From the IMG/VR virus record IMGVR_UViG_2681813454_000001: DNA of 12,506 nucleotides; one strand, given 5' to 3'. Position numbers: made by a program. Shown one piece after another: positions 1 to 9,000 of this stretch. How positions within the stretch are numbered: the first letter of the stretch is position 1; every line of letters starts with the position of its first letter. Source of the DNA: a virus (taxonomy: Duplodnaviria; Heunggongvirae; Uroviricota; Caudoviricetes).

Positions 1-3000
1 TTACCCATTGGCGCGGCTTAAGAGCTTATTTTTGAATTCACAATGGTCACGATATAACCATCTTGCTCGCCCGTGGATAACTTTGGCTTTTGGCAGGTCG
101 CCGGACTTAATCCGGTCATAGATGAAGGTTTTACCGAAGCCAGTATCGGCCATGATGAATTTCAAATCAACCAGTGAATCAGGTTGTAGTTCGTGTTGCA
201 TGAGTGCTATCTCCGAATAGGGAATCGAACCTGCAAATCAGGCAATAAAAAACCGCCATCAGGCGGCTTGGTGTTCTTTCAGTTCTTCAATTCGAATATT
301 AGTTACGTCTGCATGTGCTATCTGCGCCCACAGCATCCAGTGGTCATAGTGAAGTGGTCAACAAAAACTGGCCACCGAGTTAGAGTTTTTTCCAGTATCG
401 ATTTTCCGATTCGTTTGGTGGTAACCCACCATTATATTCGTGCGGTCTTAGTGCGCTGTAATATCCAACGATATAGTCCGTTATTGCGTGAGCTGCATCG
501 CTGAAGCTTACATAGCCCGTCGCCGGCACCCATTCGTTCTTCAGACTCCTGAAGAAGCGCTCCATTGGGCTGTTATCCCAGCAGTTTCCACGCCGACTCA
601 TACTCTGCCTGATCCGGTATCTCCACAGTAACTGCCGGAACTGCCTGCTCGTATAATGACTGCCTTGATCGCTGTGGAACATCACCCCGACGGGCTTACC
701 ACGGGTTTCCCATGCCATTTCCAGTGCTTTCATGGTAAGCCTGCTGTCCGGCGAGAACGACATGGCCCAGCCCACTGGTTTTCTTGCGAACAGGTCGAGA
801 ACAACGGCGAGGTACGCCCAGCGCTTACCCGTCCAGATATAGGTCACATCACCGCACCACACCTGATTTGGCTCGGTCACGGCGAACTGCCGTTCAAGGT
901 AGTTAGGGATAGCAACATGTTCATGACCACCACGTTTATACCGGTAAGTCGGCTGCTGACAGCTGACCAGCCCCAGCTCTTTCATGAGTCTGCCAGCAAG
1001 CCAGCGCCCCATCTGGTAGCCTCTCTGGGTTGCCATTGTGGCGATGCTTCTTGCTCCGGCAGAGCCGTGGCTGATGCCATGCAGTTCAAGTACCTGGCTG
1101 CGTAATACAGCCCGTCTGCCGTCTGGCTTTTCAGGACGGTTTTTCCAGTATTTGTAGCTGCTGCGATGGACCCCGAACACATGGCAGAGAGTGGCCACAG
1201 GATAACGCGCCCTGAGTTTCCCGATTATCGAGAACTGTTCAGGGAGTCTGACATCAAGAGCGCGGTAGCCTTTTTTAATATTTCATTTTCCATTTCAATA
1301 CGTTGTAGCTTTTTCCTGAGCTCACGGATTTCAATTTGTTCCGGGGTAATAGGGGAGGCTTTTGGTGTTTTTCCCTGCCGCTCATCACGTAATTGTTTCA
1401 CCCATCGCGTCATTGTGGAAAGGCCGACATCCATAGCGCTGGCTGCATCTGCCACGGTGTAATTCTGGTCAACGACCAGTTGAGCGGATTCGCGTTTAAA
1501 CTCTGCGCTGAAATTTCTTTTTTTCATTATGGCACCTGTGTTGTTCTGAGGTGAGCATATCACCTCTGTTCAGGTGGCCAAATTCAGTAAACCACTTCAA
1601 ACTTAAATGGTCAGCAGCTTTATGGATTGTTAGTTGGTGGTGGCATCATAAACGCAGCAGTATTAGCGGGGATGCTAAAAACGGCTGCGTTTGTTGTTCC
1701 TGCTGCTGGTGTCGTAGGAGGAGCTGCGAAGGCATACGAAAGCCCTGTTATACGAAATGCCTTGTTACGTCTGGCAAATACGCCAAAAGGTAGCACAGCA
1801 TATGACAGAGCGATCAGTACGGTCACACAATCGCTCACCAGAGTCGCACAGGCATCACAAAAAGAAGCTCAATAACTGGCAGCCACGGATGGCTAATTTT
1901 TATTCTTTGATCTCGTCCACAGGTAAAGAAGAGCAATGGCAAGACAGGAAACAGAGAATAGATAACCTACCTCATATGGTGCGCCAAAAAAATTAGCTAT
2001 TGATACGGGCAAAAAAGCCGAAGCGATCAGAATTGAAAGGCAAAAAATAAGCCCAGTAACATAGTTTATTAAACTCTTAAATGAGAAACGTTTTGCTTGA
2101 TTTACGGTCTCAGCGAGTGATCGCTTAACGATGGATAAAAGCAAATAGATGGCGACAGTAGCTAATGCCCCTTTCCACCAGTCTGGATATAGTTTTGCGA
2201 CAATCAGCCCAAGGAAAACCATGATGACAGACTGAGCATTCACACCAACCTCCTTAGTTTTGCGCAGGATACCAGATGATGTATAGGAGTGGGAGTAAAG
2301 TTAGTCGGTGATAGAACGGTGGTTGCATAATGATATCACGTGACGTAAACTTATTGCGCATAGCGTGTATTCAATGGATGCATAGCTATTGATAATCTCC
2401 GATAAGAAGGAGGTTTGTATGAGCAATGAGACTAATGGGATTGATGAAATGTTTAGCTTGAACGCTGCCAAAGCTGGAGTCGCAATAGGTTTGCTATTAC
2501 AGCAAGCTTCTGCGTTCAGTTGTGAGGTGGTTGTTACTGATAACGTTCAGCACGCTTACCATCAATCCTCATTCAGCAGTGAACGGGCTAATGATGAGCT
2601 TCATGAGGCGGTGTCTTCGATTAAAGAATTGTCTCGAATGCTGAAATACGCTTATCGTGTTCTTGCAAACGCTACCGATGAGAATGTAGACAATGTGTTG
2701 TCTATCATTGAACCAGAAAAGTCTCGATTGATAGAGCATCAATTGAGAGGACTTGAAGGGGCAATGAAATCGGTATTCAAAGAAGCTTCTGCTGATTTTA
2801 AAGAGATCGCAAGAGATATCTATATCGTTGTTGCTGATGCCAGATCTGCCGTAACCAACCTGAATAGTCTTATTAAACAACGCTCATGTGTTCCGGTTGT
2901 TTTTGATAGTTCCGTAGATATGGCTGGTTTGCGTGCGCTTGCTGAGCACGGGACTCGTGTGTTTCACTCTGGTAACTTCCACTGAGGTAAAACATGCAAG

Positions 3001-6000: not shown

Positions 6001-9000
6001 ATAACGGACGGATTGCCAAGTTCGTAACTGTGCAAGGCCATTCTATGGCTGTGTACGATGCGTATGGCGTACAGCAGTTCTATTTCCAGAATGTGCTGAA
6101 GTATGATCCTGATCAACTACGGCAGCAATTAGAAGACCCAGATGGAGCGAATAAATACCCAAAACTTCAGATAGCAAGATGGAGAGACAGTTATGATGTA
6201 AGAGGTTGGGGGGCTATTGGTGATGGTGTTCATGATGATACATCAGCTCTATCAGAATTACTTTCTGTTGCAACAGGTGGTGAAAAGATAGATGGGCGAG
6301 GGCTTACTTTTAAAGTATCAACTCTTCCAGATGTCAGTCGATTTAAAAATGCTCGTTTTTTATTTGAGAGAATACCGGGTCAGCCTCTTTTTTATGTTTC
6401 TGAAGATTTTATCCAGGGAGAGTTATTTAAAATTACAGATACACCGTGGTACAACGCCTGGACGCAGGATAAAACGTTTGTATATGACAATGTCATCTAT
6501 GCGCCTTTTATGGCTGGAGACCGCCATGGTGTAAATAACCTCCATGTTGCATGGGTTCGCTCAGGAGATGACGGGAAGACCTGGACAACGCCGGAATGGC
6601 TTACAGATTTACATGAAAACTATCCCACAGTTAACTATCACTGCATGAGTATGGGGGTTGTCAGAAATCGCCTTTTTGCTGTAATTGAGACGCGGACCGT
6701 GAGCGGAAATAAACTGCAGGTTGCAGAGTTGTGGGATCGCCCAATGAGTCGCAGCCTTCGCGTTGAAGTGGTCAACAAAAACTGGCCACCGAGTTAGAGT
6801 TTTTTCCAGTATCGATTTTCCGATTCGTTTGGTGGTAACCCACCATTATATTCGTGCGGTCTTAGTGCGCTGTAATATCCAACGATATAGTCCGTTATTG
6901 CGTGAGCTGCATCGCTGAAGCTTACATAGCCCGTCGCCGGCACCCATTCGTTCTTCAGACTCCTGAAGAAGCGCTCCATTGGGCTGTTATCCCAGCAGTT
7001 TCCACGCCGACTCATACTCTGCCTGATCCGGTATCTCCACAGTAACTGCCGGAACTGCCTGCTCGTATAATGACTGCCTTGATCGCTGTGGAACATCACC
7101 CCGACGGGCTTACCACGGGTTTCCCATGCCATTTCCAGTGCTTTCATGGTAAGCCTGCTGTCCGGCGAGAACGACATGGCCCAGCCCACTGGTTTTCTTG
7201 CGAACAGGTCGAGAACAACGGCGAGGTACGCCCAGCGCTTACCCGTCCAGATATAGGTCACATCACCGCACCACACCTGATTTGGCTCGGTCACGGCGAA
7301 CTGCCGTTCAAGGTAGTTAGGGATAGCAACATGTTCATGACCACCACGTTTATACCGGTAAGTCGGCTGCTGACAGCTGACCAGCCCCAGCTCTTTCATG
7401 AGTCTGCCAGCAAGCCAGCGCCCCATCTGGTAGCCTCTCTGGGTTGCCATTGTGGCGATGCTTCTTGCTCCGGCAGAGCCGTGGCTGATGCCATGCAGTT
7501 CAAGTACCTGGCTGCGTAATACAGCCCGTCTGCCGTCTGGCTTTTCAGGACGGTTTTTCCAGTATTTGTAGCTGCTGCGATGGACCCCGAACACATGGCA
7601 GAGAGTGGCCACAGGATAACGCGCCCTGAGTTTCCCGATTATCGAGAACTGTTCAGGGAGTCTGACATCAAGAGCGCGGTAGCCTTTTTTAATATTTCAT
7701 TTTCCATTTCAATACGTTGTAGCTTTTTCCTGAGCTCACGGATTTCAATTTGTTCCGGGGTAATAGGGGAGGCTTTTGGTGTTTTTCCCTGCCGCTCATC
7801 ACGTAATTGTTTCACCCATCGCGTCATTGTGGAAAGGCCGACATCCATAGCGCTGGCTGCATCTGCCACGGTGTAATTCTGGTCAACGACCAGTTGAGCG
7901 GATTCGCGTTTAAACTCTGCGCTGAAATTTCTTTTTTTCATTATGGCACCTGTGTTGTTCTGAGGTGAGCATATCACCTCTGTTCAGGTGGCCAAATTCA
8001 GTAAACCACTTCACGTTTATGGTGGTATAACGAAAGCAGCAAATCAGCAAGTCGCTTATATTCGCATTACTGATCACGGATTATTTGCTGGTGATTTTGT
8101 CAACTTCTCAAACTCTGGTGTTACAGGTGTTACCGGGAATATGACGGTGACTACTGTTATTGATAAAAATACTTTTACAGTTACGACGCAAAATACCCAG
8201 GATGTGGATCAGAATAACGAGGGTAGATACTGGAGTTTTGGTACATCATTTCACTCGTCACCATGGAGAAAAACCAGTCTTGGAACTATTCCTTCTTTTG
8301 TTGACGGAAGCACTCCTGTTACTGAGATTCACAGTTTTGCGACGATTAGCGATAACAGTTTTGCTGTTGGCTACCATAATGGTGATATTGGTCCACGCGA
8401 GCTTGGGATACTCTATTTCTCTGATGCTTTCGGTTCTCCTGGTAGCTTTGTTCGCAGACGCATACCTGCAGAATATGAGGCGAATGCATCTGAGCCATGT
8501 GTAAAATATTATGATGGCATTCTGTATCTGACGACCAGGGGGACATTAAGTACTCAACCCGGTAGTTCATTGCACAGAAGCTCTGATTTAGGTACATCAT
8601 GGAATTCTCTTCGCTTCCCAAATAATGTTCATCACTCAAACCTTCCTTTTGCCAAAGTTGGCGATGAGCTGATTATTTTTGGCAGTGAGCGCGCATTTGG
8701 TGAGTGGGAAGGAGGAGAACCTGATAACCGTTATGCAGGAAACTATCCAAGAACATTTATGACCAGAGTTAACGTCAATGAGTGGAGTCTGGATAATGTA
8801 GAGTGGGTTAATGTTACTGATCAGATTTATCAGGGCGGAATAGTTAACTCTGCGGTTGGTGTTGGTTCAGTTTGTATCAAAGACAACTGGCTGTACTACA
8901 TTTTCGGTGGGGAAGACTTTCTAAACCCATGGAGCATAGGGGATAACAACAGAAAATATCCTTATGTTCACGATGGTCACCCGGCTGATTTGTATTGTTT

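Follow-up and report, generated by a model that had tools for sequence, protein, structure and literature searches.

The 12,506-nt stretch of DNA analyzed here (IMG/VR record IMGVR_UViG_2681813454_000001; hereafter, the window) is a remnant of a CUS-3-type, P22-like prophage of K1 Escherichia coli, which lies at argW and runs from torI to intS. We found that the insertion sequence (IS) ISEc52 very probably reduced the prophage to these 12.5 kb in three steps: an insertion, a deletion of 30,139 bp, and the later arrival of a second copy. The two copies of the element are as follows.

350..1599, minus strand: ISEc52 copy 1, an IS911-like element of the IS3 family, with the tip of the right inverted repeat (IRR) at 350, the tip of the left inverted repeat (IRL) at 1599 and no target duplication; it contains orfA (1527..1225), an A6G frameshift site (1276..1270) and the orfB frame (1282..380)
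6764..8013, minus strand: ISEc52 copy 2, equal to copy 1 and in the same orientation, with a CGT duplication at 6761-6763 and 8014-8016

At an offset of 6414, the copies appear as one maximal stretch without any mismatch, 350-1599 being equal to 6764-8013 over 1250 bp on the same strand; with its IRR at 350 and its IRL at 1599, the element is inverted in the window. A preliminary description of this DNA had called them two identical, directly oriented copies of IS911, which holds for their identity and orientation but not for the name. Compared with the IS911 copy annotated in phage Sf6, which was used as comparator and is not the reference X17613, the element is 94.87% identical over 1247 nt (63 mismatches and one gap). 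The Prokaryotic Genome Annotation Pipeline (PGAP) of NCBI labels identical sequence as ISEc52, and the copies that it labels as IS911 are ~94% identical to the window element. By the ISfinder convention, isoforms share at least ~95% nucleotide identity. Thus, the window element is ISEc52, which falls below the ~95% isoform cut-off for IS911 sensu stricto. It is a very common element, with copies at least 99% identical in 939 records.

Within the element, orfA (100 codons) encodes an HTH_Tnp_1 domain (E = 6e-14) and orfB an rve (DDE) domain (E = 1e-31), while the slippery sequence AAAAAAG, the A6G motif for -1 frameshifting, is located at IS position 324, where the two frames overlap. The IRL and IRR begin alike (TGAAGTGGT), are identical at 26 of their first 40 positions, and close the element with TG...CA. 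ISEc52 thus shows the hallmarks of the IS3 family, namely two open reading frames (ORFs) with an A6G -1 frameshift, TG...CA repeats, and a 3-bp duplication (at copy 2), and it is intact, as both inverted repeats (IRs), orfA, the A6G site, and the rve domain of orfB are present. It resembles IS911, a copy-out/paste-in element of the same family from Shigella dysenteriae that is also found in phage Sf6, in its 1250-bp length class, its orfA, A6G -1 frameshift site and DDE (rve) orfB, its 3-bp target duplication, and its IRR, which matches the published 36-nt IS911 IRR oligonucleotide at 36 of 36 positions (PMC2909936). In contrast, overall nucleotide identity is 94.9%, and IRL positions 9-11 read TTT in ISEc52 and CAC in IS911.

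Copy 2 had been described as a simple insertion with duplicated CGT, and the empty site in E. coli S88 confirms this. The flanks of copy 2 read ...CTTCGCGT / IS / CGTTTATGG, and the uninterrupted S88 site reads ...CTTCGCGT / TTATGG (...CGCGT / TTATGG). Because S88 reads through with a single CGT, this is a true 3-bp target duplication. The flanks of copy 1 read ...GGTCATAG / IS / AACTTAAATGG, with TAG on the left and AAC on the right as initially noted, and no duplication of 2, 3, or 4 bp fits at any plausible boundary. These boundaries are fixed, because the two copies are identical, the IRR matches the published IRR of IS911, and an IS911-like IRL forms the right end. The fragments beside copy 1, which the preliminary description took to be unrelated and truncated, indeed come from two different genes and are both incomplete.

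259..349, minus strand: remainder (3' 91 nt) of a hypothetical early-left gene of 168 nt (55 codons) that is truncated by copy 1, with TAG at the junction
1600..1875, plus strand: the last 276 nt of a 2013-nt DNA-ejection gene of the P22-gp16 family
1600..1616, plus strand: the deletion joint, consisting of an AAC spacer and then TTAAATGGTCAGCA, native gp16 sequence

Comparison with related strains, which had been recommended as a way to find the undisrupted arrangement, identified it in the intact S88 prophage of ~40 kb, where the two flanks of copy 1 are 30,139 bp apart. Window positions 1-349 correspond to 42407-42059 of the S88 region (L004) and window positions 1600-6763 to the sequence from L004 11919 downward, on the same strand and with ~100% identity. 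L004 11920-42058, exactly 30,139 bp, is absent from the window, and copy 1 stands in its place. The deletion spans from the first 77 nt of the 55-codon gene next to torI (L004 41982-42149, of which 42059-42149 is kept in the window) to the first 1,737 nt of the gp16-family gene. According to the S88 map, the early-left, immunity, replication, nin, lysis, packaging, and head genes were lost with it.

Copy 1 therefore bears the signature of an IS-adjacent deletion: a duplication is lacking, and the missing DNA separates two points of S88 to which the flanks map colinearly and in the same orientation. The preliminary description had left the choice between an IS-mediated deletion and an inversion. 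Because the flanks are colinear and in the same orientation in S88, and because the host gene order is kept (dsdC on one side and argW-yfdC on the other, as seen in the avian strain PE144), the event was a deletion, and both inversion and translocation are ruled out. Reciprocal TAG/AAC junctions, which had been suggested as something to search for, are not expected, because the DNA was deleted and not inverted.

Adjacent deletions without target-site duplications are common in the IS3 family, where they follow a prior insertion and can grow stepwise (PMC11708052). As in the cases of IS150 in the Lenski long-term lines and of IS3 with a fused OrfAB, the IS in the window keeps one original junction, the duplication is lost, and one side is deleted. 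The window differs from these cases in that it comes from a natural isolate and most of the prophage has been removed. In addition, the endpoint is located 3 bp from a mimic of an IR tip, which is not reported in the accessible text on those cases.

The relative timing of the deletion and copy 2 is given by the complete genome of PE144. At the two junctions of copy 1 and across the deletion, this genome does not differ from the window, but copy 2 is missing and the tailspike gene is intact. The only other differences from the window are the number of neuO repeats (60 in PE144, 47 in the window) and a single G in the YafO-like toxin gene; in PE144, PGAP annotates the truncated 55-codon gene as 'missing N-terminus'. 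Because the deletion and copy 1 are present in PE144, where copy 2 is absent, the deletion preceded copy 2. Copy 2 is thus a later, strain-private simple insertion after nt 986 of the tailspike gene, which is split as follows.

5778..6763, plus strand: the 5' 986 nt of the 2946-nt endosialidase tailspike gene, ending with CGT at 6761-6763
8014..9976, plus strand: the 3' remainder of the endosialidase tailspike gene, with beta-barrel, beta-propeller, tailspike, and chaperone domains

PE144 also bears on the idea that the 7,664-bp unit 350-8013 was inserted whole as a composite transposon, bringing immI and the cargo genes with it. Such a unit would have the right appearance, as identical direct IS copies bracket 5.2 kb, with an IRR at one outer end and an IRL at the other. 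However, its outer flanks are TAG and CGT without duplication, both the 5.2 kb inside and the sequence following copy 2 on the right keep the gene order of the intact prophage and are colinear with it, and in PE144 the inner segment accompanies copy 1 while copy 2 is missing. These observations refute the composite transposon, to which we give practically no weight.

We surveyed 5,426 complete E. coli genomes for the junctions. The left junction of copy 1 was present only in PE144 and strain 1585m1, the right junction of copy 1 only in PE144, and the left junction of copy 2 in none. The copy-1 left junction was likewise found in none of the viral or metagenome contigs. A recombined product with a single IS was not evident in the complete genomes, for which the right junction of copy 2 was not searched. 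The two genomes with the copy-1 left junction are not such recombinants, as PE144 keeps the copy-1 right junction and the right flank in 1585m1 is unrelated.

The absence of copy 2 from all complete genomes, together with the difficulty of assembling 1.25-kb repeats, could mean that copy 2, or even the arrangement of two copies as such, is an artefact of assembly. On the other hand, the 3-bp duplication around copy 2 is perfect, and S88 has the same site uninterrupted. Furthermore, a metagenome scaffold of 5,271 bp (ENA ERZ28605438, scaffold_390; L081), 100% identical to window 1547-6817, carries the copy-1 right and copy-2 left junctions together, although it possibly comes from the same sample as the window. 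The scaffold breaks within the IS at both ends, which is expected of a short-read assembly of a two-copy arrangement. An artefact is thus hardly credible.

1585m1 represents a second deletion from the same left junction. At 20101-21350 of this genome (L005, NZ_CP086391), an ISEc52 that differs by 1 nt is joined to the same nucleotide of the 55-codon gene in the same orientation (TAG/IRR), within a lambda-like prophage that occupies the lambda attachment site. On its IRL side, this IS is joined to a nin-region DNA-methylase gene that is truncated, and there is no duplication (TAG/ATG). The homologous left flank common to 1585m1 and the window extends over 111 nt only. Because 1585m1 shares the left junction and has a different right one, the TAG/IRR junction is older or preferred, while the IRL junctions are lineage-specific. 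From this shared junction, we take TAG to be the site of the primary insertion and interpret both cases as deletions that proceeded from the IRL. The occurrence of TAG/IRR in two prophages could reflect either a hot spot or common descent through prophage recombination; the intact 55-codon-gene target was present in at least 2,200 genomes and occupied in two only. Elsewhere, an ISEc52 copy at 9900-11149 of AHB22 (L003, NZ_OZ547099) interrupts ant of an otherwise complete-looking CUS-3-type prophage, at approximately window position 5492. Its flanks, ...TTCAAT / IS / GATCGAAC, show an imperfect duplication (AAT/GAT).

The right side of copy 1 holds a further clue to how the deletion may have arisen. 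The joint reads ...CCACTTCA / AAC / TTAAATGGTCAGCA..., and its final 17 nt are original gp16 sequence. Of the 14 positions of the IRR tip TGAAGTGGTCAACA, 11 are matched by TTAAATGGTCAGCA, which has the orientation of the IS's own IRR and lies exactly 3 bp from the IRL tip. This order of IRL, 3 bp, and IRR-like tip is the geometry of the IS911 figure-eight or circle junction, where we infer the 3-bp expectation from the figure-eight mechanism. In the S88 region, only 4 of 47,001 same-strand positions match IRR positions 1-14 at 11 or more of 14, and the deletion endpoint is 3 bp before one of them. The gapped score at the joint corresponded to P = 2e-4 against background (uncorrected; ~3e-3 after ~14 tests). 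The same score gave P > 0.06 for all six other junctions, namely copy 1 left, copy 2 on both sides, 1585m1 right, and the AHB22 ant insertion on both sides. Similarly, none of ~62 IRL junctions from other Enterobacterales was above 7 of 14. As the joint is 3 bp from an IRR-tip mimic that is rare by score, the transposase probably chose the endpoint, which suggests that it made the joint at a surrogate end within gp16.

Such a reaction has precedents, as the first strand transfer may hit sites besides the second end (bioRxiv 10.1101/2023.06.07.543989), and targeted insertion of IS911 beside IS ends is covered in references that PMC7986276 cites. The window joint resembles the product of IS911 targeted insertion and the IRR-3 bp-IRL circle junction in its succession of IRL, 3 bp, and IRR-like tip. 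It differs from a circle junction in that coding sequence native to gp16 takes the place of the IRR, with a match of 11/14 at the tip and none in the subterminal region.

We therefore propose an order of events that would run as follows. One ISEc52 would have inserted at TAG in the small gene next to torI, and 30,139 bp on its IRL side would then have been lost; the loss is seen directly against S88, and we infer the order of these two steps. By one route, direct transfer of the IRL 3'-OH would have taken place beside the surrogate end, in the manner of a figure-eight, and replication would have resolved the product. By the other, a second copy in the same orientation would have been pasted beside the surrogate end and then recombined with copy 1. 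The window as it stands, where copy 2 lies in direct orientation at a distance of 5.2 kb, is the very intermediate that the second route requires. We lean slightly toward this second route, but the two are not separable. Last, as the comparison with PE144 shows, copy-out/paste-in added an identical copy to the tailspike gene with duplication of CGT, in this strain only. The int/xis module, neuO, immI, and a few accessory genes are the survivors, and the two direct copies now set up the next round of deletion.

Several observations weigh against this scenario and its surrogate end. The argument for a surrogate end comes from one junction and was noticed post hoc. The likeness to the IRR is confined to the tip (1-14), and on visual comparison, gp16 shows no convincing match at positions 15-36; according to the discussion in PMC7780238, the subterminal region both binds the OrfAB N-terminal domain and sets the position of attack. 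The deletion joint in 1585m1 has no IR-like sequence. Moreover, when chimeric queries of IS end and flank were built for the seven other IR-like sites of the S88 prophage, with the real joint as positive control, no genome contained any of the seven sites joined to an ISEc52 end, and the control (PE144) was the only match. Finally, no intermediate was found in the 5,426 genomes, neither a simple insertion with TAG/TAG nor a second copy at AAC/AAC, and viral and metagenome contigs likewise held no ancestor with a simple insertion, which leaves both the starting site and the route as proposals.

A rival explanation is a purely host-mediated deletion. In this case, a second ISEc52 would have inserted untargeted at AAC in gp16 and recombined through RecA with the copy at TAG, and the IRR-like sequence would be coincidental. 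Copy 2 demonstrates that second copies in the same orientation arise nearby, direct repeats of 1.25 kb are known to recombine readily, and both the negative recurrence test and the 1585m1 joint without IR-like sequence agree with it. Coincidence would, however, have to account for an endpoint that is placed to the base, with the 3-bp spacer expected from the mechanism, at one of four sites of at least 11/14 in 47 kb, and the two-copy intermediate was found in no genome. We consider this explanation possible but rather unlikely.

The left side of copy 1 raises the question of whether the polarity of events might be reversed, with the primary insertion in gp16 at AAC and the TAG joint being new, made by an IRR end that attacked a hot spot next to torI. 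This would account for the same TAG/IRR junction in two different prophages, that of the window and PE144 and that of 1585m1. In addition, window 336-343 in the left flank is AGTGGTCA, an exact 8-mer of the IRR tip that ends 3 nt before the IS, and the flank read outward is CTA/TGACCAC. TGA at this offset is enriched at IRL-side junctions of relatives (5/59). In contrast, in tip-to-tip geometry the likeness of the left flanks to an IR is not significant (P = 0.1-0.7) whereas the right flank is IR-like, and the 8-mer is direct and not inverted. The intact target is occupied in just two of the at least 2,200 genomes that have it, and ancestry of the shared junction through prophage recombination accounts for its recurrence equally well. 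A primary insertion in gp16 is thus quite unlikely, and we retain TAG as the starting site.

The TGA enrichment was observed at IRL junctions of IS911-like elements from other Enterobacterales (L006-L077). Of 59 unique flanks, 5 had TGA at positions 4-6 beyond the tip, with 0.9 expected (P = 0.002 before offset correction), a hint that an IR-tip-like TGA at a distance of 3 bp may be weakly preferred. The IRR-side flanks from other genera, 8-11 in number, were too few for this test. In the small subset with both ends found, most copies had no duplication of 3-4 bp. In Cedecea neteri (L008, 4168-4251), an IS911-like element has a duplicated or nested end, consisting of two IRLs with the same orientation at a distance of 60 nt from each other. 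The right flank of copy 2, TTATGGTGGTATAAC, which appears IRR-like by eye, was not significant (P = 0.07).

The deletion might also have formed without a target chosen by the transposase, through illegitimate or microhomology recombination or through excision of the IS-excision enhancer (IEE) type at the IS end. TTCA is common to the IS end (...CTTCA) and gp16 (...GTTCAA), and IEE-linked deletions beside IS3-family elements have been described (bioRxiv 10.1101/2023.06.07.543989). However, a crossover within TTCA would give TTCAAAAC, while the window has TTCAAAC, which is one A short; this crossover is thus ruled out. IEE events, in turn, usually remove the IS. Overall, we regard a deletion of this kind as very improbable.

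The geometry of the joint may extend to a promoter. On the minus strand, CTGACC (1614..1609) is separated by 17 bp from TTTACT (1591..1586), upstream of orfA, and a modelled true circle junction reads TTGACC, 17 bp, TTTACT. Circle junctions of IS3-family elements form strong promoters (PMC3219604 and PMC12095673), and the window joint likewise has an outward -35-like hexamer 17 bp from the -10-like hexamer of the IRL. A sigma-70 consensus scan predicted no promoter at either IRL junction; because it requires A at position 2 of the -10, and would thereby overlook the modelled true circle junction as well, the scan is uninformative. One could therefore imagine a deletion in a single step, by IRL transfer 3 bp from a chance IRR-tip mimic in gp16, that permanently fixed a pseudo circle junction as a putative promoter; this would keep the cis-acting transposase of copy 1 elevated and hence explain the arrival of copy 2 only 5.2 kb away. 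We attach little credence to this extended scenario. If the junction promoter were active, copy 1 would over-express transposase.

The prophage assignment follows from the ends and contents of the window: intS is next to argW with torI at the opposite end, attachment (att) cores of the KplE1 type lie just outside the window, as seen in PE144, and neuO repeats and an endosialidase gene are present. The 5.2 kb bracketed by the direct repeats was correctly described as carrying immI and cargo genes; it contains two Arc/Mnt-type repressor genes, ant, a YafO-like toxin gene, a ClpP-like protease gene, and two unknowns. The remaining features are as follows.

1..201, minus strand: torI, excisionase or recombination directionality factor, the last gene of the argW-type recombination module (PGAP; 100% identical in PE144 and S88)
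221..236, minus strand: the 16-mer TTGCAGGTTCGATTCC, a repeat of the tRNA-Arg T-arm, attR core according to the CUS-3 GenBank record
1893..2222, minus strand: hypothetical gene in hkcB-like position (PGAP of PE144; no Pfam match)
2419..2985, plus strand: hypothetical gene
2994..3442, plus strand: YafO-family toxin gene, frameshifted because one G that PE144 and S88 have is missing at 3047
3491..4027, minus strand: ClpP-like protease gene
4027..4712: immI repressor genes, of Arc/Mnt type (4027-4275, minus strand) and of Arc type (4390-4542, plus strand), and a small ORF (4539-4712, plus strand)
4775..5677, plus strand: ant, P22-type antirepressor, with P22_AR_N and P22_AR_C domains
10130..11109, plus strand: neuO, polysialate O-acetyltransferase gene, with 47 AAGACTC repeats (10135-10463), phase OFF
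11349..12506, minus strand: intS, prophage integrase gene adjoining argW

The G missing from the toxin gene lies within the run CCCCG(G)TTTTT, and the same allele is present on metagenome scaffold L081. The phase of neuO depends on whether the number of repeats is a multiple of 3 (PMC13001214). As 47 is not divisible by 3, the gene is in phase OFF, and its ORF stops at 10519. Repeat counts elsewhere were 60 in PE144 and 21 in E10 (both ON), and 34 in S88, 32 in AHB22, and 19 in the CUS-3 prophage of RS218 (all OFF); the 60 repeats of PE144 exceed the range of 3-53 in a 2026 survey of 64 genomes. Compared with CUS-3 of E. coli K1 (RS218; CP000711) and its S88-type relatives, int, neuO with AAGACTC, the endosialidase tailspike gene, and ant are 96-100% identical. 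The window differs in being ~30 kb shorter and in its split tailspike gene, and its immI-proximal accessory genes are those of the S88 variant and not of RS218.

In PE144, the att cores (L001 17913-17927 and 29507-29521) are of the KplE1 type, CTGCAGGGGACACCAT, and the attR core lies 74-88 nt to the left of the window start. The attR core of the CUS-3 GenBank record, TTGCAGGTTCGATTCC, is located between the small gene and torI and would put torI outside the phage; the KplE1-type core and published attR primers instead place attR beyond torI. Accordingly, the two argW 3'-end halves are duplicated to either side of torI. KplE1 (CPS-53), a defective prophage of K-12 at argW, has the same attachment site and the same intS...torI module at its ends. 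It is ~10 kb long and has lost its lytic genes (PMC3509656). It carries gtr and yfd cargo, in contrast to neuO, endosialidase, and immI in the window, where the scar of the IS deletion is still visible. With torI, intS, and both att cores as seen in PE144, the remnant may still excise like KplE1.

Another IS3-family element, annotated with the AL1L pseudoknot, has inserted independently in the same prophage region of other K1 strains. Two inverted copies are present in NCTC11151 (L078; 3964-5177 and 7985-9198) and one in E10 (L079; 3951-5164). Its sites are the ClpP-like gene and the tailspike gene after nt 945, 41 nt from the copy-2 site.

Prophage decay through an IS, by adjacent deletion and then further insertion, is a well-known phenomenon, of which the window is an ordinary case, and the copy-1 arrangement is already present and annotated in the RefSeq genome of PE144. 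What the window offers is a base-resolved example of an insertion sequence domesticating a prophage. The genes for replication, lysis, packaging, and head were lost, while the host-useful capsule O-acetylation switch neuO and the int/xis module were kept. The second copy predisposes the remnant to further shrinkage. That the 5.2-kb interval could be lost or mobilised through recombination between the copies, as the preliminary description suggested, is a reasonable idea; with such a loss, immI would disappear together with the accessory genes, and the deletion would grow to ~35 kb. To our knowledge, the IS911-type surrogate-end reaction has so far been known from plasmid assays. The circle-junction-like joint, now a single suggestive case, would if confirmed be a natural footprint of this reaction. 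For the genomics of K1 E. coli, the presence of neuO need not mean that an inducible CUS-3 phage is present.

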